Of a stretch of 64,000 nt of DNA, positions 46,701 through 64,000 are shown piece after piece. This stretch comes from an uncultured Clostridia bacterium. GTDB lineage: Bacteria; Bacillota; Clostridia; Christensenellales; UBA1242. The notes below the pieces were generated by a model, which saw only the letters and a list, made by a program, of their open reading frames with translations, was not told the origin of the DNA and made no database searches. The stretch is taken from the NCBI GenBank assembly GCA_934747965.1, contig CAKVHI010000005.1, positions 16,856 to 80,855 of the forward strand, given 5' to 3'. The position numbers were made by a program, and so were the translations under genes. Each line of letters opens with the position of its first letter. The first letter of the stretch is position 1.

Positions 46701-49700
46701 TCAAGTTACATTTAATGGAAATGTAACCGAAAAGAACGGATTTAACTTTTTGTATGATAAAGAAACAAAGTCTTTGTTTGGTTATAAAATTGAAAATGGG
46801 CAACTTGTTGTTTTGAGTGATCTTCAAAACAAACGAAACACAATTTTGAAAATCACACCTAAGTATAAGTCTTTTGTTTATGGTAAAGAAACAGAAAGCG
46901 TGGGTGCAAGCATTGAGGTTAAAGTTGTAGATTTCTTTGTTGAAGGAATTTCAGTTTCTGATAGTAGTGATAATATATTGAAAAATTCTTTAGGCAATTC
47001 AACAATTTTGAAAGCAGATTTGTTGGTTAACAGTTGCAAAGAATTTAAATATTTGGATTCTAATTCAAACGAAATTTCTGGCTTTAGTTATGAAGGCGGA
47101 CAAGTAATTTTTGATAATTTATCTCGAGAACTTGAATTGTCAAATATAAATTTAAGCATAGAATCATTAACAAATTCCATTTCAAAATCTAACTATTCTT
47201 GGAACTTAATCACACAAAATTCAAGTGGAAATTTGATTTATAACAACATAAAAGAAAACACAACATACACAAATTTCTTGGTAAACAAAGATGATAGCGG
47301 ATTCTATTATGTGATTGGTAAAAATGTTTCAGAAAACAGGATGATTGTTAAAGCAAATTTAAGTTATGAAAATGGTCAAGTTTTGTTAAAACAAAATTCA
47401 GATTATGAAATTTCATCCGAATTTATGCTTGACATCAAAACTCAATCAAGTTTAGATAATCCTCTTCCTATATATTCTGCAAATGATTTTTCACAAATGC
47501 TTGCGGGTGGTGATTACATTTTGATGAATGATATTACTCTTGATGAAAACTTTGCTGGAATAGATACTGAAATTTCAAGTTTTGACGGAAATAATAAAAC
47601 AATTAACATTCAATCTTTCTTGATTTCAAGCACAAACCAAACCAATTTAGGTTTGTTTAACGAGATTAAAGAAAACACAATAATTAAAAACTTAAAAGTT
47701 AATATTTTGCCTTCTCTATGTTATGCTGAAAATGATTATTTCTATGGTTTAAATATTAATGCTCAAATGCTAAATAGTTTAAACTTTGGTGTTATTTGTG
47801 GCGTAAACAAAGGCGTTATTACAAATTGTAAGGTTGTTAACAACAATTTCAAAATCGTTAATAATGCAAATGTGTTTGGTGAACTTAAAATTTTTGTTAA
47901 TGTAAACGAAAACATAGAAGCCTTTGTTGGTGGCCTTGTTGGTGTGAATGAGGGTTATATAACAAATTGTGGCGTTGGATTGAATAGCAATGATTATAGC
48001 AATTCAATGATTATTGAATCTAAAGCTCAAATGGGTGGTCTTGTTTCTGTAAACAGCAAAAAAATTGCTGGAAGTTATGTTTTGAACACAGCAATTTATA
48101 ATAATTCTTTAAGCAAAATCACAGGCGGATTTGTGTCTGAAAACCAAAATGGCGCTGTTATTTCAACAAGTTATGTTCAAGGTTACAGCGAAAAACCTTT
48201 GGAAATCCATGAATCTTTGAAAGATGGTGGAATTTTTGCAAATGGCAATGTCGGCGGTTTTGTTGCAATAAATGAAGGTAATGTTAAAGATTGCTATTCT
48301 AATATATTGATAAGCACAAATAAACGCTCAAGTGGATTTGTTTATGACAATTCTAACGGCTATGTAGAAACTTGTATAAGTCTTTCTAATTCATCAAGTA
48401 AAACACAAAGTTTTAGACCTTTCACAGGAAATGATGAAGAAAATATAAGTTTAAACAACTACGGCATAAAATATTGTTACTATAAATCTGAAGAAAGTGA
48501 TTTGAATGGTGGCGAAGGCGAGTTTGATGAACCAGCAAATGGAATTATGAATTTTTCAGATGCAAGTTATTTTGAAGGCTTTATTTGTGATGACACAGAA
48601 AGCTCAATTTGGTCATTTAACAAAAACTTAATGCCAAGACTTGTTGATGCTGATAAAAATATTGTTTGCGAGCGAGAACTTATAAATTCTGTTTCTAGTC
48701 AAACAGAAAAGTATCAGTATATATATATTAATAATAATATAGGAATCTTAAATAATCCTATAGTAGTTAGCACTACAGAACAATTCTTTGACGCTTTAAC
48801 AAACGAAAATAATTTGTATTCTTATTATTTTAATGGAAAAATTAGAAAAACTAACATAAATTACAATTATATTAGCATTGTTAAAGATTTAGATTTATCA
48901 AAAATAATTGATAAAAACAACAATGAAACAAACACAACAAATGAAGTGCAAAAATTGCAAGATATAATTTTTGCTGGTAATTTGAATGGAAATAGCATGC
49001 TTTTAGAAAATATCACTATTACCGCTAAAAATGATAAACTAAAATATTCTTCATTTGGATTGTTTAAACAAATTGGTGTTGAATTAACTTACGATAATAG
49101 TTTAAAAATTGGTAATGAAAAATTAGATAAAGATAACTGTTCGGTTATTAAAAATGCTTACTTTGAAATTGACGGTATTTCGGCAACTATTACAAAAACT
49201 GTTGGAACACTAAGTGGTGAAGTGATAAACTCAAAACTATATAACATTAATATTTACAACAATAATAATGTTGTGGTTACTGGAAACAACATTGTTGGTG
49301 GTGTTGCAGGAAGAATAAGTGGAAACAGTTTCGTTAAAGGCGTAAGCAGTAATTTAAGCGTTAAAGCAACATTTGAAAATAAAACTTCAAACTATGACTA
49401 TTTAGTAGCAAATTCTAAAAAAGTTTATAGATATGCTTATAATAGTGTTGAAGATAACATAAACGAAAACGCAAATATTGTTGGTGGTATATTTGGCGTT
49501 GTTGATATTTATCAAACGCAAATCAAAAATTTTACACAACATTCTGACGGCTCATCTTATTATCTTGATGCTGAAATTACAAGGGATAATGACTACTTGT
49601 TTGATAATGCTAATATTCAGTTTACTCAAGTCAGCGGAAATGTTCAGTTAACTGGAGATATCGTTGGCGGATTGTTTGGTTATGTTTTAAATGGAAGCAA

Positions 49701-52700
49701 AATTTATGACGCTAAATTCGTTCTTAACGAATCAAACACTCAAAATTTAATTGCGGGTTATGCAGTTGGTGGTGTTGCTGGCATAAACAAAGGTTTAATT
49801 TCTTATGCGACTGTTGAAACACAACTTTTAAGACAAAGAGTTATAGACAAAACAAGTCAAGATGGTTATTTAACAAGTTATTTGTTTAGTAATGCAAACA
49901 ACAAAGCTTATTTTGTTGGCGGACTTGTTGGCGTTTTACAAAACGGAGTGTTAAATTATTCATACAGCAAAGCAAACATAACAGCAAAAAACAGTAGGTT
50001 TGTTGGGTCATCTGTTGGGGCATTTATCAATTCAAGAATAGAATATGTTTATGCAAATTCTTATCTTGAAGCACAAGATGAAGATGTTCAAAATGGAGTT
50101 ATCCTTACTCAAAAAGGATACGCCGGATTTATTGGAACAATTACTGATTTCTCTAACTCAAGTCGAATAAGTCATGCTGTTTCAATAATAAGAAACACTA
50201 AAAATTCAAATAAGTTTAATCTTTCAAAATTTGTTGGATATAATCAATGCAAAAATATTGACGGCAGTAAAATAAACTTTGAATATTCAAACGATGTTGA
50301 AGAAATTGATGTTGTCGGTGGAAATAGTTTTGAAAACAACGGCGTTGGTTATTCTTATAACAAATATATAACCTACGATTCGGGAACATTTAATGGCTAT
50401 AGCAATTCTGATTGCTTTGTAAGAATAATAAATAAAGACACTTTCTTTAGATTGACATATAACAAAAAAGGCTCAGTAACAGAAATTAATAATGAAAATG
50501 ATCTTAGAAATATGTTTTCTAATGGTGAATGTGTTTTAACAAAAGATATTTATTTAACTTCTCCTTGGGAGCCTATTAGTGAATTCAAAGGTAGTTTCTA
50601 TAGTGCAAAAAGAGAAAACAGACAAGAAGGTCAAAGTGAGTACTACAAAATTTACAACCTAACGATAAACGAAAAATCAAAAAATGTTGCAAACAATGTT
50701 GGTTTCTTTGCTTCAACAAGTGGTGCAACAATAAGTAACATAACTTTTGTTGTTGGCTCTAATTTTGTTGATCCGGGAGATGGTCAAGACCCAACAGAAA
50801 CTGATCCTAATTGGGGTAGTGATAATTCCAAAGATAAAATTAGGCGAGGCATTAATATCATAAATACTAATGTTGAAAGAAGTTATGCTTTAGGAATTTT
50901 AAGTGCTCAAGATAACGGCTCAAAAATAACAAACATAACACTAGAATTTAGTGAAATTAATGATAGCACTGACACAAATGTAATTTTGACAAATTTAAAT
51001 TATGTTGGTGGTTTGATTGGAAAAGCTGTTGACACAAATATTGACGGTGTTACAATCAAAAATTTAAGTTTGAAACGAACAACAACTAAAAATTTTGATG
51101 CTTATGTTGGCGGTTTAATTGGATATGTTAAAAACACCAATAGTGAAGATATTAAAAACATATCATTTGTTGGAAATAATAATGTTTATAATCTTCAAGG
51201 AAAAGAAAATGAGCGTAGTTATGTTGGTGGTTTGTTTGGTCAAATTATAAATTCGAAAATAGATGGCTTTAGTGTTTTGAAAGAAGATTCAAAACTAAGT
51301 GTAACTCACAACGCAAACGGAGTGTCAGGTGCTAGAAGCAATGTTCATGTTGGTGGCGTTGCTGGAAATATCCAAAATGTTGCTCTTTCTAAAATTATAT
51401 TGAACGAAACTAGCGTAGAGTTTACAAACACTTATAACAATCTTAACAGCGTATATGCTGGCGGTGTTGCAGGTTATGCACAAGAAGCAAACTATGAAGA
51501 TATTATTGTTCCAACATCTTCAAGTGTAGTTGTTTTAGATAACTCACAAACAAGCACATCATCAAACTTTGTTGGTGGTTTGTTCGGACAATCTGTTGGT
51601 GGAACACTTAAAAATGTTCTTTGCAGTGCAGAAGTAAGTTTGGAAGCAATTTCATCAAATGGTCAAACTAATGTTGGTGGTTTGATTGGCAGAAACGGTA
51701 ATAAAAATAATGACAAGTTTATTAAAGGAACAACATTAAACAATATAATCTGTCGAGGCACGATTATTGTTAAAGACAAAGGTAAAAGTGATTGCTGTAT
51801 TGGTGGCTTAATTGGTTATAACATTGAGGCAGATATGCAAGATTCTGTGTTCCTAGGCAGTGTTAAATATTTCGTTCAAAAATTAGAAAATATTGGTGGA
51901 CTTGTTGGTGCTAATAAAAATCGTTATAAAAATGAAAATGGCTTTGATTTAGATGGTAAAGATAACAATAATAAAAACTTTAATGGCTGTTTCTTTGTTG
52001 AGGACCTTGCATTATTGCCTGCAAGGAATGTAGAGTATGCTGAATATAGCATTGATAATAAAGGAATTGTTAGTTGTGTGGGCGTTGTTAAATATGCTGA
52101 TTTCGTGGATGAAAGCAACAAGATTTTGACAAACCGAAATAATGATAAAATTAGTTGTCTTGACAAAGTTAGAAGTATTTTAAACAACATTTCTTCAATA
52201 GAAAATTTTGAGGATATATCTGAAATCAATGGGGAAACTATAACCTTTAAAGAAGGAAGTGTGTTTAATCCTTACATTATTTCTAGCGAAGAAAATCTAA
52301 AAGATTATAAAGAAGATAAATATCATTTGATTAAAAAAGATGATTTACAAATTTCAACAACTATAAACAAAGTTGATGAAAATGGCATAAGTTTAGATTT
52401 TAATGCAATTATTATTGGTAATGGTAATAAAATCATTTTAAATAGCACATCTTTTGCACAGAAAATAGCGAAAAATGGCGTTATTAGTGGTGTTCAATTT
52501 GAACTTGCAGGAACAGATAAAACAACATTTAATGGCAATGAATTTGTAAATAATGTAAGTTTTATTATTGCAAATGAAAATAGCGGTGTTATTTATAACT
52601 GTGCAATAAAAGGCAATATGTATGTTGATAACAAATCAGTTGCTCCTGTTGTGATTAAAAATGCAGGAATCATTAATGTTGTTTCAAGTATGTCGCATAT

Positions 52701-55700
52701 TGTTGTGAAAGGGTTAACTATAGATAACACTTATGCTTCTGGGTTTGTAATAAAAAACAGTGGTGCGATTTACAACTCTATTACAACAGGAAATATTGAA
52801 TTTATTGATAACAATTATAATATCGCTAGTGTCAACACCGAAACATCAAAAATATTTGGCTTTGTACAAGAAAATTCAGATACAATCGTAAATTGTATTT
52901 CTGCTCAAACCTTGCCTTTAACTTCAGATTTAGGCTCAAATTCACAACCTCATGCTTCATTTGGCGGTGTTAATGCTACAGGCAAATTTGCAAACTGCTA
53001 TGTTGATATGTTGGCAAATGGATATTTCAGCGGAAGAAATATTCCAAATGGACAAAGTTATGTTGATTTTAACAGTATGTTTAATAAAGAAAACGGTTAT
53101 ATAAGAAAAGGCTCTTTATCTAACCTTTGGTCTGAAAACGATGCTCAAGTTATGTATGGATATGCTTATCCTTGCATTTCTAGTTACAAAAATACTTTTG
53201 CAATATTATTTAACACAAAAACAAATGAAGGTTATTATAAAGTTAACAATCTAAGTGCATTTAATTTTGTTATTGATTCTTTGAATAATAACAATGATGT
53301 TACATCAATAAACATTAAACAAATTGCTTCATTTATGGGTGGAGTTTCAAAAATCACACTTAGTGGAACGACTGATGCTTATGTTCAGAAACCTATTGAG
53401 CTTAAGAAATCACTAAAATATGATGGAAACAATTTTGCAATTAATTTGTTACATTTATCTTCAAATTTAATTGAAAGTGAAGGCATAAAAAACAGTTACA
53501 CAGGCTTATTCTATACTCTTTCAGAAAATGTTAACATAACAATAAACAATGTTGCATTGTTAAATGCAAAATTTGATATTGTGTTTGCTGAAAACAAAAA
53601 GAATAACGAGTTAAGCAATGTTGCAAACAACATTTATGCAGGAGCTTTTGTTGCCTTAAATAAAAATGGCATAACGAAAATATCAAATTGTTATGTTGAA
53701 GGAACAATGAAAACAATTCAGGCTTCAAGCCCTAACTTTTCAACTGCTAAAGTTATGTGCGTTGGCGGATTTGTTGGATTGTCTGGAGATAAAGAAGGAA
53801 ATAAAATTTCATCTTGTGTAAGCAAATTGAATATTAATTTAGATTATTTAACAGCAACTAAGTCGTTTAATAAAGAAACGGCTAACGAAATTGGCTATGC
53901 AAGTTTTGTTGGTGGCTTTGTTGGTAAATTAGAAAAAGGAACAATCACAAACAACTTTAACTTTGCAGATGTAACTTGTGCAAGCTCAAAAACTGCAAGT
54001 GTTGGCGGAATTGTTGGCGCAATCAATGCTGGAGCAATAACAAAGAATGTTATGTTTGGTGTTGTGTCTTATAAAGGTGCTTATTTAAGTTACTACAAAA
54101 ATAACAATAACAACAAGTTAAACTATAATATTAATGCAATAGCGGGCGACATTGGTGCAGGGTGCACTACTGAAGACAGCGGAATTAAAAATCAATATAA
54201 TAATCTTTTAAATTTGGTTGGTGATTTAAATATAACTGAAACAAGTTTAACAGTCTTAATGGATTATGTTGATGCAAACCTTAATAATGTTAATAATTTT
54301 GCTGTCGAAAACTCAGAAACCAAAGTTTTTGAGAAACCTGAATATGAGGTTGTAAATAGCAATAATTTAACACTTGAAAGCAATAAAAACTATATTGTAA
54401 ATCATAGTGGTGAAATCAATATTTCTTTAAAAGATGAAAATTTAGAGAAGAATTTGACAAATACAAAAGTTTTGTTTGCTTCTGAATGCACTGTTACAGT
54501 AACTGAAAACTTGTTTAACAAACTAGAAAATTGTGTTATATCAAATCTAAAAATTGTGAGTGAACAAAACTTAACAACTGTAAGTTTGGCAAAAGAAATT
54601 GTAAACACCAAACTTTACAAAATAACTGTTTCTAACATTTGTTTTGATAGGAATGGTAATGATGTTAAAAACGATAATAATCTGGGTAATATTGTGGCGG
54701 TTGGTGGTGTTGTTGACATTGCTAGGTCATCAATATTAAAATCTGTTAAAGTAGAAAACGGTAGAGTTAAATTTGATGCTCAAAATGCTGGAAACACTAA
54801 TGCTGATTATGCTTGTATTGGTGGTGTTGCTGGATATGCAATTTCAACATTGTTTGAAGATTGTCAAAACACTGCAACCATAACTACTGAGCATTCAACG
54901 CAAAATTATAGCACACTTAAAACTGCGGGCATACTTGGATTATCGCAAAACGGATATTTGTTTAAATGCATTAATAGTGGTCTTGTTTATGCTAAAAATG
55001 GAAATAAGAATGCAACAACACAAAATTATGTTGCCGGAATTGTTAATGCATTTAATTCTTCAAATGTGATTTCTTTCTGTAAAAATGAAAACACAGTTAA
55101 AGGTGTTAATAATAAAGTATCAAATGATGAAGGAAATTGTGTTGGCGGAATTTCAACCAATGGTACAGTTTTATTCTCTATTAACAAATCAAATGTTTTG
55201 AGCATTGCAGCAAGCAATAATGAATACATTCAATCAGCGGGCATTATGGCAAGTGAAGATAAATCAGGCAGTGTTATGTATAGTTATCAACTAGGCAGTG
55301 TTATGAGCCAAAAGAATGCCTATGCAATAACTCCTGCTCAGGCAAATTATTGCTATAGCATTGGCGGTGGATTTACTGTTAATGGCACATTAAATTTGAA
55401 TGGTAACAAAACAAATAATTGCTACACTTATAAAGATATCATTGAAAATAAAGATAATTGGTTTAATGATTTCACTGATATTTCAGACTTTGTGGTGGAC
55501 ACAGAGCAAGATATAAAACTTCCAAGAATTAAATTGCTTGATGAAACTGCCTTTACACTTACTGAAACAATTTATAAAGATGAAGATACTAACACAGAAA
55601 AGATAGCATATAAAATTTCAAATGCATTTGAATTGTGGTATTGGTCTGTTTATAAAAGTGCTGACGGTAAAAGCGTTTCAATCGTTGATGACATTGATAT

Positions 55701-58700
55701 GACAGGTTACACTTATTTCACACCTATATGTGGAGAGAATATAACAATTGACGGAAACTTCCACACAATTTCTAACCTAAAAATTGTTGAAACAACTGAT
55801 GGAACTAATAAATATTGGGGATTTGTTGGAAAAAATGCAGGGACAATTCAAAATATTAACTTTGAAAATCCAAGAATAACTATTGACAATATTTCGCAAC
55901 AATCTTCAACAACACAATCTTCAACAACAAGTGGAGAAAGTACGACTAGTGAGAATACAATTTTTGAAGATAACAATTATATTTCTATTGTAGCTGGTCT
56001 AAACTTGGGCAAAATAGACAATATTACTGTTGGTCAGGTTGGCGACACATCATCATTTATTAACATTAACTTTATAACTTCAGACATGAAAAGGCAATAC
56101 ACTAAAATTTATATTGGCACAGTGTCTGGACAAAGTAGTGGTACCGTTTCTAATTGTAATGTTATAAATCTAAGTCTTCAAGCAATAGACTCTTCAATAA
56201 CGCAAACGGCAAATTCTGGATTTATGTTTAGTTTTGAAGGCTTAAACATAGAAAATTATGTTGGCGGAATTGTGGGCTGTAATGATAACACAATTTCAAA
56301 TTGCAATTTTATCTCAAAAATAAAATCTCATTTAACCAACATGCATACATTTGGTATGGGAACAACTGTAAGTGCTGGAGAAACTAATGTTGATATAGAT
56401 TTATATAGGATTTGTTCAGATGCAAAACAATATGTTGGTCAAATTGTTGGAAAAGGCACTTGTGCTAACGATTGTTATTCGCCTAAAACAATTAACTTAA
56501 TTGACATGTTCACAAAAAACAATTATGGCGAAGAAAAATATTCTAGTGAAAGTAGCTCTTATACTGTACCGATTATGGATTTCGATATGAGTAAATTTGG
56601 TGCTGTTCTTGCTAGTGGTGCAATAAAAGGAGCAAAGAGTTTCGGACTTGGGGCGATTGTTGAAATTACCAAACAAGCAACTGTGTCTGCAATCAATAAA
56701 GGAACAATAGAAAGTGTGTTTAATAATTCAGGCTTGAGAGAAACAGCCCCTGGGTCCTTTGTTGAAATTAGAATAGATAGTGTTGAAAATCCTAATCCTA
56801 ATTATATTTACATTAGCCCTTATGTTTCTGGCTTTGAAAATTCAAGCCCTTACATTGCCTTGATGAATGGCACAGATAATAGTAAATTTGGAAAATTGCC
56901 ATATAACGAAAATTTCCTATCTTTAAGTCAATCTAAAAAAGCGCCAAAAAGCGAAAATGGTAATTATTATATTTACGATATCAATGAACTTGCTTATGCA
57001 CTAAGTGAATATTCAAACAAAACCCTTGTGCTTATGGACAACATTGACATGACACGAAAGGTTTGGGATGTTAATACATTAAATAAGAACACAATCATTG
57101 ACAACGGATTTAAGATTGTTTATGGGTCTAATACTGGTTTTAAGGATAAGTTTGAAACGATCTTTGGTGAAGATTTTGCAACTAACATTTTGACTTGTGA
57201 AACATCGAGTGCAAATGAATATGGTAAATTTGAAACACTAACTAAAAACCCAACTGAAATTGCCTACGAAAACTTTATTGAAAGGTTTAAAAAAGTTTGG
57301 AAAGCAGAATATAGTAAAACAAACAATGTGACACCTGCTGGCTTGGATTCGAAATTTAATGAATTAGGAAATAATGAAACAACTTTTGTTGTTCAATATT
57401 CTTCTCAACTTGAAGTGATTGCTGATGCAATGGCAGAGTATACCGCTTGCGGACGTCTTCATAAAGGTATTAACTTTACTGGCAAAACAATCATTATTGA
57501 TAACAATGTTGAATTAACAGAGAATTTATTGTCTTTGGATAGATATAACTATGACAAAAACGATAATAAAGCCCCAAATTTTGTAACAGAAGGTATGTTT
57601 GACGATGACACGACAATTAAATATGGCGAAAACATTGAAAATATTTACCAAACATTTAATGGAACAATTAAAAGCCGAGATGGAAAAAATTATTCTATTA
57701 AATTGACCAATAACAAACAATGCTTGTTGCAAGTTTTAGGCCACAGCGGAAAAATTAAAAACTTAACTTTAAATGCTGAAGCAATAAAAGATATAAATGT
57801 TGATAGCAATTCAAATACATCTTCTTTGGGTGTTGTTGAGAACTATGGCGAAATTAATAACTTTAATGTTGTTAGTGCTAATGCTTTGACAATTTCAAGA
57901 AAAATTAACTTTATTGACCACTTTGTTGGTGTAGACACAGACAACTCAAAACTTTATTCTTCTGCTTGTTTAATCTTTGGCTTGTATTGTGGTTATAATG
58001 CTGGAACAATTCAAAATTGTAATTTCACAAATAGAAATTTGACTATCCAAATAGAAACCACTGTTGTTTATTTTGATGAAAATATAATAACAATTAATAA
58101 TAATGGAACAAACACAGAGGTCAATATTGACACTCATGAAACTTATTCTGGTTATAACCGCATAACTACTGCAACAAATTATGTTGGTGTTGTTAGTGGA
58201 TTAAATATTAATAATATTTGTGATATTAAAATTAATAGTGCAACGCTTACAATTAATTCAACCGCTGAAAATGAAAATTTGAAAGATGGCAAAACTTCTG
58301 AGATTGAATGTGGTTTGGGTGCGGGTTTTGTTAGTGGAATGAATAATTTTATAAAAGATTACACAACAAGTTATACTGATTCTGAAACTAAAGAAAAGAA
58401 AAACATAAATTTGAGAAACATTTTAGTGTTTGAAAGTGAAATTCAAGCGAACGACTTAAGTTATGTTTCGGCTGGTTTAATTTCGGGTGTTTCTGAGTTG
58501 GGATTTTCTGGCTGCAAAGTTTTAGATTCAAATATTACAACAAATATTGCCGATAATGAAAATGTAACAACTGGTGCGATTTCGGGACGTTTGATGCCAA
58601 AAGTTTATAAAACTACCGAAAAATACGAAAGTGTGGAAGTTTACACATCATATTTACCTGAAGTTGAAAGCTGTGTTTCTAGCAATATCAATTTGTTCGG

Positions 58701-59547
58701 ACGAATTAACAGTATAACAATTAGTGAATATAGTAACAAACACGATGGTAAAACATATTCAAGTTCATTCAGTTTTATGTATTACGATTACGTTACCAAT
58801 AATGAAAGTAATAATAGTCCGTTTGGTTATTGTGCTTATTATTGTTCATTTGACAAGGATGGTAATTTAATCAAATGTGAAAACAAAGAAGGTAGTTATA
58901 CAATTAATTTGCCTGAGAACATAAAAGATAGTTTGCAAACTGTTACAAGCAAGGCTTATTATGAACATCATGTTATAGATGGAGAGAATAATGACATTAT
59001 TATTCCAAATGTTGAGTCTGATAAATTAGCAAATTTAAGAATGAAATTAACTTTAAAAGAAGATACAGAAATTTGCTTTACTCTTGTTGACGGAAGTGAA
59101 ATTTACAAAACAAATGATATTGTGTTGAAGAATTTATTTACAATTAGTCTGGTCAAAGAAATTAAAGATGAAAATGGTAAAATAATTGATTATGAAGAAG
59201 TTGAAACTTCAACAGGTTATGAAGACCAAATTATAACCATAAACGGTCAAGAATTTGTTGGCAAAATTACTTTTGGCAAAGATGCTAAAGAAAATATAAG
59301 TAGTGAAGAAGATTTAATTTTAGGTTTTAAATTTAAAGTTACTTATTCAAATCTTAGTATTAATCTTAACATGGTAGTGGGTAACACACTTGGACAAATA
59401 TCTTTGCCAACAGGCTTTAGTTTTGTTGAAAGTTTAGACACTGAAATTACAGAAAATGGAACATATCATGTAAATTATAAATTTCCGGTTGACGGCGTAG
59501 AATACGAAATTAAAAATATTACTCTTAAAAACACAACAAACGGATAA
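40756..59547 (+). CDS. Giant surface lipoprotein (6,263 aa) with Ig-like (Big_2-type) modules and multiple GLUG-type beta-helix repeat blocks
   Basis: Uninterrupted 18,792-nt ORF. Start set at ATG 40756 (SD GAGAGGA 5 nt upstream), not the track GTG at 40699. Signal peptide 'MKLKKILTILVFSVLAFTGAVFGC' has a lipobox Cys at residue 24. Big_2-like 'NLYFKIVDGNSIVLDNNTGVVTAQSAGITKIRVYA'. Dozens of 'VGG[LIV][VFAI]G..N.G.I.N' units. Stop TAA at 59545-59547. Confidence 0.9.
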   Translation: MKLKKILTILVFSVLAFTGAVFGCKDKYANFSIQVNGQNEITLRAGDYATDEYPNSREIEILIKNAPNNNCRNISYSVSQNNIVSIEEISSTSKDIKRYKITALDNISAFEPSTVITFKTSEGNKSCDLKVNVQIPLQSISANLAYNSFVVSDNKPYYIDASKALTYFPKNTTDRDVEFSLVEGLIDGVTLTLNGEIKVDEEKYFGQENISGKIKVRATSKTKSESYADFYVSVLRDIKLSDLTLGYDLNGVKYSYSGDVSEEEENYENSISFLTKNGITLSSNVNELKNANFSVKINESFGLNFEQIETKFESLILSNILVESNYSKDDNNTKNYIIYTKNPGKDVLNITIKYKSVENYSKEIQIPVTVLEYPTSLVVNNNAGERYDIFDYYKNNVRGQEFAVSISQIGAYNDKFKVLISEEDFNFVEIRYQDELLGYNELTSRAFANNSSLFVIAKEIQNETKEIKLTFYSDILKDKNLEEITDDFNKKLIKEISLNLVPGVRSLSFETQINQKETFYLEKSNKEFNVPFVVNNSTNGIKSLNEFINLEIVSGEDLVEISKDVDQGKFVLKSKNKTGLVEFYLKSQNGIETAHKKLLIYSGLDDSQTNPFEFVLSSSNIKTVVNENNETKYYIGSTYGKNSANFNVLNKYDATIYNAEIKSSNNAVKATVLDAENLLFNLYASENIEEKVTITVTIWVYNDFDKVNEDGNLCKKIEIDFDIYTYEPLQSVKFNNGQLFDRITLTDGEGLDVDSLNNKLNMLDLNKLINIQGTTTNVTKKVIFPSELIEGADYDVENKDELFDAIYFHVYKNHQNKFIDGKFVFGLTIEVYDLVGSNESYRLTLTVELKEQTKPEKVVIKNNGGFVYLDNLGNGLSQIEAEVVGENRKEATNKNLYFKIVDGNSIVLDNNTGVVTAQSAGITKIRVYAKASKYSSSGDYSIFSDVYVVSADGSKSFPYILQNNQFIENSYYTLNENVVLNSSLSLNIKGIDGKFRYAKYSNLYDENATYSLIFNGTGSVFEKEEFVGELENLNVIYNKNSITINSKNFGLIASKNSGTIKNVNLIVNSLTIHNNAENNNIGLYFAENVGNIENCTISSAESDYASILIDGKGANFGGFVAINKKDGDKCGSITSGFDFLKTNNHSVARLRIIDLTSAQDHCVAGLVSENSGNISGVQIEAKIESNAKFVGGIVGKIVSENIKYKNLHFNGSLISKNANSVVGGISAYVSSNFSEDGTDFNLIFVEFTESIADNSTHFSGHTVGGLFGSVNFGGQNRTNVKYAYAQNFAKVGQNSSNLKGDVVGGLVGTNASLLNITAVYSDVKILCEKDAKGAFVGAMKANTEIDNAYSYVTGVDSLFGEREENKILKLVKIYSTTSKQEKLSNDNFVSFFDKDNYASVLTLKNGNGEFVFNDNKYFACFSAQNGGLPYLVYNETDGFKKLMTVVATSINARFVVKNAVENSNNEYVYGNAENIIVVKDDELNKAVIYFNKNLQFNVEDILNITTTPYDANKNFEFRSLNNNVLSIVNGKLIINSVGNATVEISSKYNTNVKTYAYISVVDKIETFEVENKIVIANGKTKEVNAKILPKTANNGLYFVVTSDLADKILINNKQVQENVVYHLDSRTVITALDTCKGIIKVYPLTMVKFGEQDYVFIDFVNKKEIDFSVINSAKSVVASVNSIIVPENEKLEFEVYVDCTESENDQQLKFDDIENLTKYFEIDASKIEVGLNSTKFVVSVKAKDLALSQDQPFTFIIHHVLSGEISDAFAKVDVVLKSSKLQSVELNHFSSSVTYYKDYDIINKETIPNFNIVKGNYGVLSINLYPSYANVTNIDVTSSIQNGHRINFSQLKLESENKLTVTSCKDTLWTGIKLNVDRDEIKENGGNLFVATLLTTDILDDTVFTITVTCYNSLGQKYEPVSINLKAKALTTLMLTNPNGSDEFFAPRGGELKIDVNPINMDEDFKIGAENFEFTIEDRNLNQVTFNGNVTEKNGFNFLYDKETKSLFGYKIENGQLVVLSDLQNKRNTILKITPKYKSFVYGKETESVGASIEVKVVDFFVEGISVSDSSDNILKNSLGNSTILKADLLVNSCKEFKYLDSNSNEISGFSYEGGQVIFDNLSRELELSNINLSIESLTNSISKSNYSWNLITQNSSGNLIYNNIKENTTYTNFLVNKDDSGFYYVIGKNVSENRMIVKANLSYENGQVLLKQNSDYEISSEFMLDIKTQSSLDNPLPIYSANDFSQMLAGGDYILMNDITLDENFAGIDTEISSFDGNNKTINIQSFLISSTNQTNLGLFNEIKENTIIKNLKVNILPSLCYAENDYFYGLNINAQMLNSLNFGVICGVNKGVITNCKVVNNNFKIVNNANVFGELKIFVNVNENIEAFVGGLVGVNEGYITNCGVGLNSNDYSNSMIIESKAQMGGLVSVNSKKIAGSYVLNTAIYNNSLSKITGGFVSENQNGAVISTSYVQGYSEKPLEIHESLKDGGIFANGNVGGFVAINEGNVKDCYSNILISTNKRSSGFVYDNSNGYVETCISLSNSSSKTQSFRPFTGNDEENISLNNYGIKYCYYKSEESDLNGGEGEFDEPANGIMNFSDASYFEGFICDDTESSIWSFNKNLMPRLVDADKNIVCERELINSVSSQTEKYQYIYINNNIGILNNPIVVSTTEQFFDALTNENNLYSYYFNGKIRKTNINYNYISIVKDLDLSKIIDKNNNETNTTNEVQKLQDIIFAGNLNGNSMLLENITITAKNDKLKYSSFGLFKQIGVELTYDNSLKIGNEKLDKDNCSVIKNAYFEIDGISATITKTVGTLSGEVINSKLYNINIYNNNNVVVTGNNIVGGVAGRISGNSFVKGVSSNLSVKATFENKTSNYDYLVANSKKVYRYAYNSVEDNINENANIVGGIFGVVDIYQTQIKNFTQHSDGSSYYLDAEITRDNDYLFDNANIQFTQVSGNVQLTGDIVGGLFGYVLNGSKIYDAKFVLNESNTQNLIAGYAVGGVAGINKGLISYATVETQLLRQRVIDKTSQDGYLTSYLFSNANNKAYFVGGLVGVLQNGVLNYSYSKANITAKNSRFVGSSVGAFINSRIEYVYANSYLEAQDEDVQNGVILTQKGYAGFIGTITDFSNSSRISHAVSIIRNTKNSNKFNLSKFVGYNQCKNIDGSKINFEYSNDVEEIDVVGGNSFENNGVGYSYNKYITYDSGTFNGYSNSDCFVRIINKDTFFRLTYNKKGSVTEINNENDLRNMFSNGECVLTKDIYLTSPWEPISEFKGSFYSAKRENRQEGQSEYYKIYNLTINEKSKNVANNVGFFASTSGATISNITFVVGSNFVDPGDGQDPTETDPNWGSDNSKDKIRRGINIINTNVERSYALGILSAQDNGSKITNITLEFSEINDSTDTNVILTNLNYVGGLIGKAVDTNIDGVTIKNLSLKRTTTKNFDAYVGGLIGYVKNTNSEDIKNISFVGNNNVYNLQGKENERSYVGGLFGQIINSKIDGFSVLKEDSKLSVTHNANGVSGARSNVHVGGVAGNIQNVALSKIILNETSVEFTNTYNNLNSVYAGGVAGYAQEANYEDIIVPTSSSVVVLDNSQTSTSSNFVGGLFGQSVGGTLKNVLCSAEVSLEAISSNGQTNVGGLIGRNGNKNNDKFIKGTTLNNIICRGTIIVKDKGKSDCCIGGLIGYNIEADMQDSVFLGSVKYFVQKLENIGGLVGANKNRYKNENGFDLDGKDNNNKNFNGCFFVEDLALLPARNVEYAEYSIDNKGIVSCVGVVKYADFVDESNKILTNRNNDKISCLDKVRSILNNISSIENFEDISEINGETITFKEGSVFNPYIISSEENLKDYKEDKYHLIKKDDLQISTTINKVDENGISLDFNAIIIGNGNKIILNSTSFAQKIAKNGVISGVQFELAGTDKTTFNGNEFVNNVSFIIANENSGVIYNCAIKGNMYVDNKSVAPVVIKNAGIINVVSSMSHIVVKGLTIDNTYASGFVIKNSGAIYNSITTGNIEFIDNNYNIASVNTETSKIFGFVQENSDTIVNCISAQTLPLTSDLGSNSQPHASFGGVNATGKFANCYVDMLANGYFSGRNIPNGQSYVDFNSMFNKENGYIRKGSLSNLWSENDAQVMYGYAYPCISSYKNTFAILFNTKTNEGYYKVNNLSAFNFVIDSLNNNNDVTSINIKQIASFMGGVSKITLSGTTDAYVQKPIELKKSLKYDGNNFAINLLHLSSNLIESEGIKNSYTGLFYTLSENVNITINNVALLNAKFDIVFAENKKNNELSNVANNIYAGAFVALNKNGITKISNCYVEGTMKTIQASSPNFSTAKVMCVGGFVGLSGDKEGNKISSCVSKLNINLDYLTATKSFNKETANEIGYASFVGGFVGKLEKGTITNNFNFADVTCASSKTASVGGIVGAINAGAITKNVMFGVVSYKGAYLSYYKNNNNNKLNYNINAIAGDIGAGCTTEDSGIKNQYNNLLNLVGDLNITETSLTVLMDYVDANLNNVNNFAVENSETKVFEKPEYEVVNSNNLTLESNKNYIVNHSGEINISLKDENLEKNLTNTKVLFASECTVTVTENLFNKLENCVISNLKIVSEQNLTTVSLAKEIVNTKLYKITVSNICFDRNGNDVKNDNNLGNIVAVGGVVDIARSSILKSVKVENGRVKFDAQNAGNTNADYACIGGVAGYAISTLFEDCQNTATITTEHSTQNYSTLKTAGILGLSQNGYLFKCINSGLVYAKNGNKNATTQNYVAGIVNAFNSSNVISFCKNENTVKGVNNKVSNDEGNCVGGISTNGTVLFSINKSNVLSIAASNNEYIQSAGIMASEDKSGSVMYSYQLGSVMSQKNAYAITPAQANYCYSIGGGFTVNGTLNLNGNKTNNCYTYKDIIENKDNWFNDFTDISDFVVDTEQDIKLPRIKLLDETAFTLTETIYKDEDTNTEKIAYKISNAFELWYWSVYKSADGKSVSIVDDIDMTGYTYFTPICGENITIDGNFHTISNLKIVETTDGTNKYWGFVGKNAGTIQNINFENPRITIDNISQQSSTTQSSTTSGESTTSENTIFEDNNYISIVAGLNLGKIDNITVGQVGDTSSFININFITSDMKRQYTKIYIGTVSGQSSGTVSNCNVINLSLQAIDSSITQTANSGFMFSFEGLNIENYVGGIVGCNDNTISNCNFISKIKSHLTNMHTFGMGTTVSAGETNVDIDLYRICSDAKQYVGQIVGKGTCANDCYSPKTINLIDMFTKNNYGEEKYSSESSSYTVPIMDFDMSKFGAVLASGAIKGAKSFGLGAIVEITKQATVSAINKGTIESVFNNSGLRETAPGSFVEIRIDSVENPNPNYIYISPYVSGFENSSPYIALMNGTDNSKFGKLPYNENFLSLSQSKKAPKSENGNYYIYDINELAYALSEYSNKTLVLMDNIDMTRKVWDVNTLNKNTIIDNGFKIVYGSNTGFKDKFETIFGEDFATNILTCETSSANEYGKFETLTKNPTEIAYENFIERFKKVWKAEYSKTNNVTPAGLDSKFNELGNNETTFVVQYSSQLEVIADAMAEYTACGRLHKGINFTGKTIIIDNNVELTENLLSLDRYNYDKNDNKAPNFVTEGMFDDDTTIKYGENIENIYQTFNGTIKSRDGKNYSIKLTNNKQCLLQVLGHSGKIKNLTLNAEAIKDINVDSNSNTSSLGVVENYGEINNFNVVSANALTISRKINFIDHFVGVDTDNSKLYSSACLIFGLYCGYNAGTIQNCNFTNRNLTIQIETTVVYFDENIITINNNGTNTEVNIDTHETYSGYNRITTATNYVGVVSGLNINNICDIKINSATLTINSTAENENLKDGKTSEIECGLGAGFVSGMNNFIKDYTTSYTDSETKEKKNINLRNILVFESEIQANDLSYVSAGLISGVSELGFSGCKVLDSNITTNIADNENVTTGAISGRLMPKVYKTTEKYESVEVYTSYLPEVESCVSSNINLFGRINSITISEYSNKHDGKTYSSSFSFMYYDYVTNNESNNSPFGYCAYYCSFDKDGNLIKCENKEGSYTINLPENIKDSLQTVTSKAYYEHHVIDGENNDIIIPNVESDKLANLRMKLTLKEDTEICFTLVDGSEIYKTNDIVLKNLFTISLVKEIKDENGKIIDYEEVETSTGYEDQIITINGQEFVGKITFGKDAKENISSEEDLILGFKFKVTYSNLSINLNMVVGNTLGQISLPTGFSFVESLDTEITENGTYHVNYKFPVDGVEYEIKNITLKNTTNG
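43606..45060 (+). repeat. GLUG-type beta-helix repeat block 1 (protein-level repeats)
   Basis: Opens with 'ADGSKSFPYILQNNQF'. Contains 'NFGLIASKNSGTIKNV', 'VAGLVSENSGNISGV', 'FVGGIVGKI', 'VVGGISAYV', 'TVGGLFGSV' and 'VVGGLVGTN'. Closes with '...NGGLPYLVYNE'. Confidence 0.6.
47461..58700 (+). repeat. Series of about nine further GLUG-type beta-helix blocks (protein-level repeats)
   Basis: Block-opening heads lie at about 47461, 48760, 50471, 52261, 53231, 55601, 56960 and 57380. Each is followed by many 'VGG.(V/F/A)G' and 'N.G.I.N(C/S)' units. Boundaries are approximate. Confidence 0.5.
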
Positions 59548-59556
59548 ACTAAAAAA

Positions 59557-59600
59557 TATTTTGCCCTACCAAATTTTTGGTGGGGGCAAAAATAATTTTT
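59557..59600 (+). terminator. Terminator after the giant gene
   Basis: TATTTTGCCCTACCA, loop, TGGTGGGGGCAAAATA (imperfect GC-rich stem), followed by ATTTTT. Confidence 0.55.
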
Positions 59601-59816
59601 AATTTAAAATTAAATTTGATATAATTAAGTAAATTTATTGCAAAAACTAAAAAATATAAATAAACATAAACTTTATGAAAAAAAACAAAATAAACGAAAA
59701 AATATTAAAAAAACATGGGAAAAATTTAAAAAAATTTAAAAAAAATTCTGAACAAAAGAAATTTTAGTTAAAGTTAAATTAAAAACAAATTTTAACAAAA
59801 ACTAATAGGAGAAACT

Positions 59817-62800
59817 ATGAAATTAAAAAGAGTTGTTCTTACAGTTTTAATAATGATTCTTGGGCTTTGCGGCTCGCTTTTTGGGTGCAAAGAAAAACCA
59901 TTAAAACTCTCTATAAAAGAAGGTGAAGAAGAAGTAACTAAAATTTCTTTAAGTTTGGATGAAATCAAAAAGTCTGAAAATTCTCAATCGCAAGAAAGTG
60001 AAGAAAATACTACAAATGAAAGTACGGAAAATGAAGAAATTGTTGACTTAAGTCAAAAAACGATTTATGTTTTTGCAGAAAATGCAAATCAAATGTTCAA
60101 AAATGGTTTATTAATAAGTTTTAGCGAGCAGAATGTTGTTAAATGTACGCTAAATGCAAGCGAAACAAATAAGTTTGCTGATTGTTATGCATTCGACATC
60201 AAAGCGATTCAACCAAAAAATGTAGTTATTACATTTGAAACTTACGATAAAAAAACTAACATAACATTGCTTGTTGAAGTTTCACAAGATTGCGAAAAAA
60301 TTGAAAAAAACATTCATAGTGAAAATTTTGTGATTATGCATGAAGATAAGCAACTATCAAACAATATAGTTAAATATACTCCACAAACAACAACAAACAC
60401 ATCTATTTTGTTTAAACTAGCAAAAGAATATGCTGGTCTAAATTTAACTGAAACTGGTTTGCTTACATTCGCTGATGACTTTGATGAAAGTTTGACAGAA
60501 TTTTATGTTAATGTTTATCACAAAAATTACGATGAGAGTGATGACACAATAAAATCAAATTATGTTGTTGAAAATATAAGATTTGACATTTTAAGGAAAA
60601 TTGATGAAATTGTTGCGACAAAAGATGGCGTTAAGCAAACAACTTTAGAATTTGCAACAAACAAGGGAGATGGTCTTGATTATCAAACAATAGAATTTAA
60701 AAAAGTTGTCAACACTATAAGTGGAGTAAGTTATGAAGATATTGATAATTCTTACGAACTCGTTTACTATTTAAAATCTAACAATAATTTAGTAAACATA
60801 AAGCCCGATGAACAAAACAATTTTAAAATAACAATTTCTCAAAATGGTCGTGATGGAAGCGATGTTTTGGTTGCAAAAATTCAAAACAAAACATGGAAAT
60901 CTTATTTTTCTAAAGAAATTGAAATTGCAATCAACATAAAAACATATCCAAATTCAATTTATGTTAATGATTCTAAAACGCTAAGCGAATTTGTTATTTA
61001 CGATAACTTGCAAAAGAAAGAACTTGAAATAAAAATAAATGAAGGTTTTAATACTGATTTTAAGATTACTGACTATCAATCAAACTTAATCAATTTGACA
61101 TTTGAAAATGGCGACACTGTTTGGCCCGGTGCTCTTATTAAAAGTCGAACCAAAATTTTCTTATCTTGTGATGAATTTATAAATTTTGGCACAGAAAATG
61201 AGAAAAACGCATATTTCACAATTCAATCTGTTGGAAATCAAGACCTTACTAAAACAATAAATGTGAGAATCATTAAAAGCATTGTTGATGTTAGCATTTA
61301 TAACGACAACAAAGAAATTTCAAATCAAATTGAAATTTGCAAGATTAATCTTAATGGCGAAAGTACGGTTACTAAATTTGATATTAAAACAGATAGTAAA
61401 TTGATTATACCTAGTTTTGAAATTGAAATTGAAAATACGAATATTGTTAAACTCGAAAGTGTTGTAAACAAAACAAATCAAAAGAGTTTTAGTTTAATGG
61501 CTTTAACAACTGGTCAAACTTTGGTTACTTGCAAATTCGATAACGGACTTGTTAAATATTTTACTGTAAAAGTTTATGCCGGTATCAAAAATTTTGATGT
61601 TAAGTTTGCTAATCTAGTTAATATTGGAAAAACCGATAAAACAACTATATCTGACAACGGAACAGAATTTGAAGTGTTTAAATATTACATAAAAAATCAA
61701 ACAGTTTCATCTTTATATTTTGAGGCAACAGATATTAACAATAGGATTGTTTATGACAGTTATATTATCAGCAACAACTATGAAATTATAAACAATGAAG
61801 CAAACATTGCTTTGTCTAACGCTGATAACAAACTTTATGCTTTAAAATCTACAAACAAAAGTCAACTTTTAACCATAAAAGCCCAAATATTAGCAATGGT
61901 ATTTGATGAAAATAGTAACAAGTATGAACAAAAAACATTAACAAAAATCTTTTGTGTTGAAGTTTACGAACCTATAAAAAATTTAAGTTTAAGCAAAAAC
62001 TACGTTGAATTGTTTGCCAAAGATTCATTAGGCTATGAAGATTATGCTAAAAGTGAAAGTGAAATAGAAATTTTAGTTTCTCCAGAAAACGCAACCGAGT
62101 TTAATTTTTCAAACATAAGTTTTGTTTGTTACTCTGATGGGAATAGTGTTAGTCTTGATTTTGTTGGAGCGACCAAAAATGGTACAGATAGCGAAAATAA
62201 CCAGATTTATAAACTTTCAGGCAACAAATTAAAGATTACGGCTGAAAAATTAGATAACAAAACAACAGATACAGCAACGATAAGTTTTTCTGTTCAAGAT
62301 TATGTTGGGGCACTTTTCACAACAAAAATAACAGTTAAAGTTACAAAGGCAATAACGCCTGAAAAAATAATTGTTGAAAACGTCCAAAAAATTTCTGATA
62401 GCAGTGAAGAAAAAGATTATTTATATTTTAATTTGAATTTAGACGATAAGCAACAAGGCGTAAATATTAATCCAACAGTTTATCCTTTAAACAGTTTAAA
62501 TTCAGATTATGATTTTGAAATTATAAATGATGATGAAAACGATGAAGAAGATATAATCACATTCGATAAAGCAAAAGGCGTAGTTTCGCCTTTAAAAGCG
62601 GGCAAAGGCCGACTTATCTTAACTCCAAAAGGCTCTATCTCAAAAGATGATGCTGGTAACAAAATATATAAAAATCAAAAAGTAATTTACATAACTGTTG
62701 CAGACGGAGAAAAAATTCCATACAGCATTTCATCTAAACAAGAATTGTTAAATTTGTGCAAAGAACAAGAGATAGACGAAAGTAATAAAGATAAATTTAT

Positions 62801-64000
62801 TGAAAGATTCTCAAAAAGTTATGTTCTAACAAAAGATATTGATTTGAGTGGTGAAAGCATTGTGCCTATTGGAATTTATAGGTTGAAAACAAAAACTGAT
62901 TCTCAAATAACAAAACAAGCATTTACAGGAAGTTTTAGTGGATTATTTGTTCTTGATGGAACAAAACAAAAATATTCTATAACTGGCATTAAAATTGACA
63001 TAAACAGCATATATTTATCAATTTCTAAAGATATGTATTTAGGATTATTTGCTGAAAATAACGGAAATATTTCTGATTTAACAATTCAATATTCTGTTAT
63101 CAATATGTTTATGTCAGCAACACAAAATCCTGAAAATTCTCAAAGTGTTAATAAAAATTATTCGTTATATTTTGGTGGAGTTAGTGCAATAAACAAAAAA
63201 ACCATTGAAAATTGTAATGTTCAAATCAATTCTTGTGGTATAGAAACATATTTTGGTAACAATTTTATTGGTGCAGTAGTTGGTAAAAACCAAACAACAG
63301 AAAACGAAACAACAAAAGCAAATGTAAAAAATTGTTTTGCAAGTGGAAACATAAATGTTGTTGACGGATACAATAAAAACGAAATAAAATCGAATTTGTT
63401 TGTTGGTGGAATTGCCGGGGAAAATGCACAAGATTCTATAATTTCTGGCGAATTTAATATTTATGACAACAAAAATGAAATTTTCAATAAAAATATTTTT
63501 AATGTAACACTAAATTTATCTTCAATTTTAAACGGCGAACTTTCAGCATATTCACAAGATAGTGCTTTTGGTGGAATAGTTGGCTTGAATAATGGCACAG
63601 TTACTAACATGGCTTGTTACGGAAAAATATTTGCTCATCAAAATGTTGGTGGCGTTGCAGGAATAAACAACGGAACAGTTGGTGGAGAAGAAAACACTAA
63701 AAGTTTGGGATGTTTTAGTGCAAGTATTATTTATGCAAATAATGTTGCTGGTGGTTTGATTGGTAAAAACACAGGAGTTGTAAACTATAACAGCGTAATG
63801 CTTGTTGATGATGAAGAAAATTTTGAAAAAAACGGTATTATTTCAAAAATTTATGCAAATAGCGATGTTGGCGGATTGATTGGAGTTTATGAAAAAGGCT
63901 CAATTTCTAAAAACTTTGTTAGAAGTTATGTTCAAAAGGCCGATAACTATTTTGATATTTATGTTGAAAAAGCAACAGAGAATTTATCAAATTTTGGTGG
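59817..64000 (+). CDS. Second giant lipoprotein, colinear paralog of 40756-59547 (5' part; continues beyond the window)
   Basis: Not in the supplied track because it has no stop in the window. I translated nt 59817-63998 by hand and found 1,394 codons with no stop. SD AGGAG 5 nt before the ATG. 'MKLKRVVLTVLIMILGLCGSLFGC' has a lipobox Cys24. Ig-like modules run to about 62700, then 'ADGEKIPYSISSKQELLNL', then GLUG units ('YFGGVSAIN', 'FIGAVVGKN', 'FVGGIAGEN', 'FGGIVGLN', 'VGGVAGIN', 'VAGGLIGKN', 'VGGLIGVY'). Confidence 0.85.
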   Translation, partial: MKLKRVVLTVLIMILGLCGSLFGCKEKPLKLSIKEGEEEVTKISLSLDEIKKSENSQSQESEENTTNESTENEEIVDLSQKTIYVFAENANQMFKNGLLISFSEQNVVKCTLNASETNKFADCYAFDIKAIQPKNVVITFETYDKKTNITLLVEVSQDCEKIEKNIHSENFVIMHEDKQLSNNIVKYTPQTTTNTSILFKLAKEYAGLNLTETGLLTFADDFDESLTEFYVNVYHKNYDESDDTIKSNYVVENIRFDILRKIDEIVATKDGVKQTTLEFATNKGDGLDYQTIEFKKVVNTISGVSYEDIDNSYELVYYLKSNNNLVNIKPDEQNNFKITISQNGRDGSDVLVAKIQNKTWKSYFSKEIEIAINIKTYPNSIYVNDSKTLSEFVIYDNLQKKELEIKINEGFNTDFKITDYQSNLINLTFENGDTVWPGALIKSRTKIFLSCDEFINFGTENEKNAYFTIQSVGNQDLTKTINVRIIKSIVDVSIYNDNKEISNQIEICKINLNGESTVTKFDIKTDSKLIIPSFEIEIENTNIVKLESVVNKTNQKSFSLMALTTGQTLVTCKFDNGLVKYFTVKVYAGIKNFDVKFANLVNIGKTDKTTISDNGTEFEVFKYYIKNQTVSSLYFEATDINNRIVYDSYIISNNYEIINNEANIALSNADNKLYALKSTNKSQLLTIKAQILAMVFDENSNKYEQKTLTKIFCVEVYEPIKNLSLSKNYVELFAKDSLGYEDYAKSESEIEILVSPENATEFNFSNISFVCYSDGNSVSLDFVGATKNGTDSENNQIYKLSGNKLKITAEKLDNKTTDTATISFSVQDYVGALFTTKITVKVTKAITPEKIIVENVQKISDSSEEKDYLYFNLNLDDKQQGVNINPTVYPLNSLNSDYDFEIINDDENDEEDIITFDKAKGVVSPLKAGKGRLILTPKGSISKDDAGNKIYKNQKVIYITVADGEKIPYSISSKQELLNLCKEQEIDESNKDKFIERFSKSYVLTKDIDLSGESIVPIGIYRLKTKTDSQITKQAFTGSFSGLFVLDGTKQKYSITGIKIDINSIYLSISKDMYLGLFAENNGNISDLTIQYSVINMFMSATQNPENSQSVNKNYSLYFGGVSAINKKTIENCNVQINSCGIETYFGNNFIGAVVGKNQTTENETTKANVKNCFASGNINVVDGYNKNEIKSNLFVGGIAGENAQDSIISGEFNIYDNKNEIFNKNIFNVTLNLSSILNGELSAYSQDSAFGGIVGLNNGTVTNMACYGKIFAHQNVGGVAGINNGTVGGEENTKSLGCFSASIIYANNVAGGLIGKNTGVVNYNSVMLVDDEENFEKNGIISKIYANSDVGGLIGVYEKGSISKNFVRSYVQKADNYFDIYVEKATENLSNFG
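62700..64000 (+). repeat. GLUG-type beta-helix repeat block of the second giant gene
   Basis: See the units listed for the CDS. The block starts about 961 codons from the start codon, versus about 950 codons in the first gene. Confidence 0.55.

Follow-up and report, generated by a model that had tools for sequence, protein, structure and literature searches.

A second gene for a very large predicted lipoprotein forms a tandem pair in an uncultured Christensenellales bacterium

Two very large genes in tandem

The DNA analysed here is a stretch of 64,000 nucleotides (nt) from an uncultured Clostridia bacterium of the Christensenellales (assembly GCA_934747965.1, contig CAKVHI010000005.1, positions 16,856 to 80,855 of the forward strand), referred to as the window throughout. 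It contains two very long genes in tandem, gene 1, which is complete, and gene 2, which starts downstream of gene 1 and is still open at the window end (Table 1). Gene 2 is real and encodes a second very large protein, predicted to be lipid-anchored at the cell surface. Its ATG (59817–59819, plus strand) follows the Shine-Dalgarno sequence AGGAG (59807–59811) with a spacer of 5 nt, and the frame runs from there to position 64,000 through 1,394 codons with no stop, so that coordinates and translation agree with the original prediction, which had read this start and frame from the sequence. The DNA of the window has a guanine-cytosine (GC) content of 27–29%, at which about 8% (roughly one in 12) of random codons are stops, and by arithmetic the chance of a stop-free frame of this length is about 1e-52. 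A run of 1,394 stop-free codons in such AT-rich DNA is therefore not a chance event. The longest open reading frame (ORF) in the five other frames of the region, on the minus strand, has 88 amino acids (aa) and is the only one of at least 60 aa. Gene 2 is absent from the ORF track of the window because the track omits ORFs that run off the source. Together, gene 1 (18,792 nt) and the visible part of gene 2 (4,184 nt) cover at least 22,976 nt or 35.9% of the window, which the initial estimate had put at about 36%.

Table 1. Features of the tandem gene pair, in window positions.
Feature	Position	Strand	Description
Gene 1 promoter-like site	40648..40677	+	TTGACA, 18-nt spacer, TATAAT; 12/12 consensus positions
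Gene 1, large paralog	40756..59547	+	6,263-aa predicted lipoprotein (Cys24), stop TAA; orthologues P0012, P0013, P0014, P0016
Hairpin	59559..59591	+	right after the gene 1 stop; U-tract 59596–59600; terminator-like
Extended −10 element TTGATATAAT, gene 2	59616..59625	+	TGnTATAAT; ~25 nt past the hairpin; invariant in the window, L001, L006 and L008
A-rich leader, gene 2	59626..59806	+	~190 nt; degenerate AAAAAAATTA tandem run at 59678–59747
Shine-Dalgarno sequence, gene 2	59807..59811	+	AGGAG, 5 nt before the ATG
Predicted lipoprotein signal peptide, gene 2, residues 1–24	59817..59888	+	lipobox LFGC; Cys24 codon 59886–59888; ...LFGC conserved in the family
Low-complexity linker, gene 2, residues ~50–75	59964..60041	+	acidic, Ser/Glu/Asn-rich; in gene 2 and its orthologues; gap in gene 1-type proteins (profile alignment)
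Stalk, gene 2, residues 25–960	59889..62696	+	all-beta, ~8–9 predicted Ig-like beta-sandwich domains of 85–130 aa
Junction VADGEKIPYSIS and two predicted helices (residues ~974–999), gene 2	62697..62816	+	canonical GLUG-module start; compare the GSG..DPY.I.t.eqL starts in P0006
First predicted GLUG beta-solenoid module, gene 2, residues ~1000–1394	62817..64000	+	six GG[ILV]xG motifs; cut by the window end

Architecture of the two proteins

Both proteins begin with a predicted lipoprotein signal peptide. As criterion for a lipobox we required a positive n-region, a hydrophobic core and the PROSITE-type pattern [LIVMFWSTAG]2-[LIVMFYSTAGCQ]-[AGS]-C, in which the Cys lies no further than about 35 residues from the start. 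The signal peptides of the pair (MKLKRVVLTVLIMILGLCGSLFGC and MKLKKILTILVFSVLAFTGAVFGC) both match the pattern, and the Cys is residue 24 in each, which holds the original assignment in place once gene 1 is started at the ATG 40756 (MKLKKILT..., with GAGAGG before it), its biological start, and not at the mechanically chosen GTG 40699. Searched with the same regular expression, 13 of the 14 full-length relatives have their lipobox Cys between residues 17 and 25. Gene 1 and the full-length relatives, P0017, P0019, P0022 and P0023 among them, show no C-terminal LPXTG motif, hydrophobic tail or transmembrane segment, the hits in full-length members being isolated and internal; the C-terminus of gene 2 itself lies outside the window, and these negatives rest on gene 1 and the complete orthologues. 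The N-terminal lipid is therefore the sole predicted anchor. Searches for SLH domains in gene 1, the gene 2 fragment, P0017 and P0019 had zero matches, and anchoring by LPXTG or SLH was rejected, neither feature being present in the proteins examined.

Between signal peptide and junction lies the stalk, whose immunoglobulin (Ig)-like domains have boundaries near residues 160, 262, 378, 490, 590, 720, 848 and 961, as read from the DSSP string together with V-x-V motifs. AlphaFold modelling of gene 2 residues 195–1394 needed a deep alignment: five sequences gave a predicted local distance difference test (pLDDT) score of 45.5, which was unusable, whereas the family alignment of 34 sequences gave 85.6. 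In the resulting model, seven successive beta-sandwich domains extend to residue ~965 and are followed by two helices (~974–999) and then by regular short strands, which are typical of beta-solenoids and have a pLDDT mostly above 90. Foldseek searches of the PDB with the stalk model returned NUP210, protocadherins, contactin and the S-layer proteins SbsB, SbsC and Sap with E-values down to 3e-19, and viral Ig-array proteins in BFVD match as well. The Ig-like stalk of the original prediction, though without Pfam support, is thus backed by the predicted model and its matches to Ig, cadherin and S-layer arrays; the assignment is supported by fold and not by sequence family.

The stalks of both proteins end at a near-identical junction, ITVADGEKIPYSI in gene 2 (residues 959–971) and VVSADGSKSFPYI in gene 1 (residues 948–960), which we place at residue 962 and residue 951, respectively, close to where it had first been noticed. 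Its motif, V-ADG-x(2-3)-PY-I, is kept in all 20 N-termini examined, at positions 927–970 in gene 2-type proteins, 931–964 in gene 1-type proteins (with P0002 as an outlier at 1007) and 868–938 in a more distant clade. That GLUG turns begin after the junction had also been proposed, and is borne out by the motif positions in both proteins (residues 1119, 1196, 1251, 1277, 1311 and 1351 in gene 2; 1116, 1190, 1222, 1263 and 1303 in gene 1) and by Pfam Glug (PF07581), which matches residues 962–1394 of gene 2, searched alone, in three stretches with 24 bits against a gathering cut-off of 20.5 (E=4.5e-5). The AlphaFold model and this Pfam match together support a predicted beta-solenoid fold for the module. 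Pfam and NCBIfam searches with the whole gene 2 fragment, as well as PDB sequence searches with the GLUG module, had zero matches.

Two orthologue fragments, P0004 (named as a Christensenellales bacterium metagenome-assembled genome, MAG) and P0005, reach the point of the window end and continue for 237 aa into another Ig-like segment. Gene 1 likewise enters an Ig-like segment at this place; beyond its own stalk, which extends to residue ~950, GLUG beta-solenoid modules alternate with Ig-like segments.

Paralogy, synteny and age of the pair

The two proteins are about 20% identical over all modules (11–24%) and 37.5% identical in the signal peptide; compared over the same N-terminal stretch, each has 58–61% identity to its closest orthologue. 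When gene 2 is compared with gene 1 by BLASTP, one weak match spans the junction, with 25% identity along 552 aa (E=6e-5), and the first 820 residues stay unmatched. Searched against the whole database, gene 2 returned zero gene 1-type proteins; gene 1-type proteins searched against the gene 2 N-terminus by BLASTP reach E-values down to 4e-12. The relationship becomes visible at the profile level: hhalign of gene 2 and P0001 against gene 1 and P0002/P0003 gave a probability of 99% and E=2.5e-18 over 983 collinear columns starting at residue 1. Stalk-only profiles (residues ~25–940, six sequences per family, signal peptide and all GLUG regions excluded) still align with a probability of 99% and E=5e-18 over 787 collinear columns, whereas the controls reached E=0.007 with a reversed template and 0.2–0.8 with five column-shuffled ones. 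The distance between these controls and 5e-18 means that compositional bias is not the cause of the stalk match. The original prediction had described a pair with strongly diverged sequence and conserved architecture, had suggested aligning it module by module, and had tied the paralogy to homology of the N-terminal regions; the N-terminal regions are homologous, and the low identities and collinear profiles agree with the description.

Comparing full-length family profiles, residues 1–3011 of the gene 2 type align to residues 1–3081 of the gene 1 type over 2,680 collinear columns (E=7e-128). The gene 2 type is therefore equivalent to the N-terminal half of the gene 1 type, whose proteins have about 3,200 extra residues of similar modules. 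At the DNA level, blastn finds zero similarity between the two genes. There is thus no trace of recent gene conversion, which was rejected together with a variant cassette system, and the antigenic or adhesive variant family that had been offered as an alternative to an old duplication finds no support in copies that share no blastn similarity and form a syntenically fixed pair.

A search of 1.84 billion protein representatives with the stalk profile (E<=1e-3) returned 75 proteins, all of which matched from their own N-terminus. Of the gene 1-type relatives (Table 1), P0012 has 6,681 aa and is 51% identical to gene 1 along the full length. Gene 2 is 57% identical to P0001 and 49% to P0004, and has complete orthologues in P0017 (4,060 aa, 50% identity), P0019 (3,511 aa, 43%), P0022 (3,390 aa, 37%) and P0023 (3,399 aa, 35%). 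Its full length, judged from these sequences, is expected to be about 3,400–4,100 aa. The claim of a second giant paralog hence divides: the paralogy stands, but giant size is not provable from the window, and the complete orthologues, at 3,390–4,060 aa, are about half as long as gene 1 (6,263 aa). P0017, P0019 and P0022 run collinearly as far as residue ~3,500, after which P0017 adds about 550 residues containing a Transglut_core domain (residues 3814–3917, at ~21440–21750 of its locus L006; E=1.7e-10) that is missing from P0019 and P0022.

The order of a large gene followed by a small one is found in the window, where 59547 is the last position of gene 1 and 59817 the first of gene 2, and in five other loci, in all of which the gene 2 orthologue lies directly downstream of a gene 1-type gene of 5,000–6,700 aa. 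These are L001 (CABRQW010000001, from a MAG labelled uncultured Catabacter; large protein 6,681 aa, small protein P0001, cut at the contig end), L006 (6,368 aa and P0017, followed by rpoB and rpoC), L008 (6,489 aa and P0019, followed by an 822-aa gene cut at the contig end), L009 (6,260 aa and P0022, followed by YhhN) and L010 (5,021 aa and P0027, followed by rpoB, rpoC, L7Ae, rpsL and rpsG). The pair is immediately upstream of rpoB-rpoC in L006 (22419–29783) and L010 (20132–27437), and by analogy rpoB-rpoC would be expected downstream of the pair in the window too. L010 (GCA_050178795.1, JBFXFT010000002.1) is labelled 'Spirochaetales bacterium' by NCBI; its rpoB-rpoC-L7Ae-rpsL-rpsG order and its pair resemble the Christensenellales-like loci, and the label may be a misclassification.

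In a neighbour-joining tree of the N-terminal 1,400 residues, the gene 1 clade is separate from the gene 2 clade. Both have members from the window, CABRQW and L008; L006 entered the tree through its small gene P0017 only. Because both clades are populated from the same genomes, the duplication predates these species. Separate clades and positional orthologues of both paralogs in five other loci support what had been suggested at the outset, an ancient duplication that appears to have been kept by selection. A distant clade, P0026–P0036, behaves differently: there, the large copy P0028 (5,036 aa) groups with small copies (P0027 and others, ~3,260–3,460 aa), apart from the gene 1 and gene 2 clades, which hints at an independent duplication, concerted evolution or distance saturation.

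Hairpins occur at the same place as in the window in L001 (9700–9780), L006 (9736–9815), L008 (9694–9775) and L009. Their stem sequence differs from locus to locus, and the four that were folded have stabilities of −18 to −26 kcal/mol with z-scores of −3.6 to −6.0. In the leader that follows, conservation is confined to the last ~25 nt (CAAAAACTAATAGGAGAAACT), and a search of the leader against Rfam returned zero families. Because of the conserved hairpin and the invariant TTGATATAAT, the two genes are probably separate transcription units: transcripts of gene 1 would terminate, and gene 2 would then be read from a promoter of its own.

Upstream of gene 1 the window encodes YchF, an M23 peptidase, ACP, SpoIIID and a PP-loop ATPase, in synteny with L004, a JGI metagenome contig. 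The PP-loop ATPase and ACP are 82–84% identical between the window and L004, compared with 37% for the N-terminus of gene 1, a contrast which shows that the giant genes change rapidly, as is often seen in surface proteins. An origin from a mobile element or prophage was rejected, the neighbours being housekeeping genes (YchF, ACP, SpoIIID and the PP-loop ATPase here, rpoBC in relatives). In L004, the gene 1 homologue shifts from frame 3 to frame 2 near residue 1,400 (10766–10835) and is called as two genes, reflecting either a sequencing error or a pseudogene. A 618-aa ORF between the ACP and SpoIIID-like genes of the window (36894–38750, plus strand) has no Pfam match and no counterpart in the otherwise syntenic L004.

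Proposed function and its alternatives

In the reading that we consider probable, gene 2 encodes the smaller of two giant paralogous lipoproteins that form an ancient pair, probably has its own promoter and has been kept in position with gene 1 in a clade of low-GC, uncultured Christensenellales-like gut Clostridia, with a surface fibre or adhesin as its most likely product. Judged from the sequence pattern, a Sec/Lsp-type signal peptide would be cut before Cys24, and the lipidated Cys would tether the N-terminus to the membrane on its outer face. The ~940 residues of Ig-like beta-sandwiches, whose length is kept in both paralogs, would then act as a fairly rigid spacer. Beyond the VADG..PY.I junction, the alternating GLUG beta-solenoids and Ig-like segments could be displayed far from the membrane, by tens of nanometres, with the solenoid modules as interaction surface, and some orthologues add a C-terminal transglutaminase-like domain. 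From this architecture, the gene 2 protein is likely to be a long lipid-anchored surface fibre or adhesin, and together with the gene 1 protein it may form a surface coat.

Several observations weigh against this reading. Lipidation of Cys24 and surface exposure of the gene 2 protein have the status of predictions from sequence. Pfam Ig-like families match the stalk below threshold only (Ig_NUP210_3rd E=0.04; Big_5 E=1.8), and Glug is not listed in a Pfam scan of the whole 1,394-aa fragment (E<=0.1), making membership among Glug proteins marginal. Consensus promoter and terminator scans called neither the gene 2 promoter nor the hairpin terminator, for which conservation is the sole basis, and in L010 the two genes are 22 nt apart, so that the pair is not transcribed separately in every locus. 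Gene 2 continues past the window end, its length and C-terminal domains being deduced from orthologues that differ among themselves (Transglut_core in P0017 only). Finally, our literature searches found no work on members of this lipoprotein family and little on the function of GLUG.

Known systems share parts of this architecture. The gene 2 protein qualifies as a GLUG motif-containing protein (PF07581), having the G..PY.I start with helical cap, the repeated GG[ILV]xG turns and the Glug match above cut-off on its residues 962–1394; the distant family member P0027 bears this name at NCBI. The GLUG proteins P0006–P0011, however, are only 320–780 aa long and have the motif alone in common (E=1e-8 to 5e-4), whereas the family described here adds the N-terminal lipobox, the ~940-aa Ig-like stalk, a size of 3,300–6,700 aa and the fixed tandem pair. 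In LPXTG-anchored fibrillar adhesins (MSCRAMM, SasG/Aap-type), a long tandem beta-sandwich stalk presents a distal binding region. Beta-sandwich stalk and distal region are alike here, but the polarity is reversed, the anchor being the N-terminal lipobox. S-layer Ig arrays (SbsB 4aq1, SbsC 5ftx, Sap 6hhu/9g93) match the stalk model in Foldseek at E=1e-14 to 3e-10. This likeness is that of generic beta-sandwich strings, as cadherins and NUP210 match equally well or better, and unlike the S-layer proteins the present ones have no SLH domain that we could find and are 5–10 times larger. Also similar are Giant1–5 of Apilactobacillus kunkeei (PMC12863079), which are encoded by consecutive genes for extracellular proteins of 3,000–8,000 aa in a small Firmicute genome, with elongated repeats and beta-solenoid domains, paralogy and fast divergence. 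Their beta-solenoid is reported to be N-terminal and to resemble the binding regions of serine-rich-repeat adhesins, and recombination between and within the genes is prominent; here, in contrast, anchor and stalk are N-terminal, the solenoids are distal and the copies have zero DNA similarity. The likeness to Giant1–5 is one of architecture and gene order as described (PMC12863079). What sets the family apart from the known systems is the combination of a predicted lipid anchor at the N-terminus, an Ig-like stalk next to it with the solenoids further out, and the fixed arrangement of two genes beside rpoBC. The result is a solid annotation, not a new kind of biology.

Instead of independent adhesins, the paralogs might be obligate partners that co-assemble into an S-layer-like coat or sheath whose height is set by the stalk length. 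In favour of this are the large-then-small pair in six loci with housekeeping surroundings by rpoBC, the position of the junction, which is kept within ~5% despite ~20% identity, and the presence of SbsB, SbsC and Sap among the Foldseek matches. These matches are to Ig-like arrays in general, though, with cadherins and NUP210 equally good, and neither SLH nor another known S-layer anchoring domain was found in the proteins scanned. The interaction of the two proteins is itself hypothetical, and fast divergence with variable C-termini suits adhesins better than a lattice protein. We regard co-assembly as unlikely. Even less likely, in our estimate, is the more far-reaching proposal that the stalks are matched molecular rulers (~930–970 residues in nearly all members, at ~20% identity) and that the obligate partners form an undescribed lipid-anchored fibrillar envelope layer that is core to the clade; if true, it would explain why ~31 kb of a small genome are kept as a fixed pair next to rpoBC.

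The proteins could alternatively serve mainly as an enzyme platform, on which solenoids and C-terminal domains act on polysaccharide, peptidoglycan or protein of other cells or on host glycans, with the stalk giving reach. Glycan-active enzymes commonly contain right-handed beta-helices, and P0017, the closest complete orthologue, ends in the cysteine-protease-like Transglut_core (E=1.7e-10). Giant proteins of predatory bacteria have also been tied to cell-wall degradation (bioRxiv 10.1101/2023.11.21.568195). P0019 and P0022, however, follow P0017 collinearly to ~3,500 but lack its Transglut_core domain, which is thus accessory; Pfam and NCBIfam identify zero catalytic families in gene 1 or the visible part of gene 2, and the GLUG motif has no assigned catalytic function. 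We therefore judge an enzyme platform to be quite improbable.

That the gene 2 frame is artefactual, or that it is a copy of gene 1 decaying as a pseudogene, might be suggested by its truncation at the window end, by two public assemblies that break at one same point inside the orthologue and by the frameshifted gene 1 homologue of L004. This is essentially excluded by the complete orthologues of 3,390–4,060 aa at the same position in several genomes, and is further countered by the stop-free frame in AT-rich DNA, by the conserved signal peptide, Shine-Dalgarno sequence and promoter elements, and by a protein conservation of 43–58% with diverged DNA, which implies purifying selection.

The annotation of the window is corrected to a gene of ~10–12 kb from 59817 and to a gene 1 that runs from 40756 instead of the GTG 40699. 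The 75 representatives among 1.84 billion proteins define a small family of 3,300–6,700-aa lipoproteins with a conserved pair, which is uncharacterised as far as the literature was searched. Christensenellales are heritable, health-associated gut bacteria whose surface structures are seemingly little known, and both proteins would be dominant candidates for surface fibres, aggregation and host or partner contact in this group.

Giant genes of this kind fragment short-read assemblies. The L001 and L002 contigs, from two independent public assemblies, both end at residue 1,104 of the gene 2 orthologue, within the first GLUG module, and such repeated breaks matter for MAG completeness around the rpoBC marker genes.

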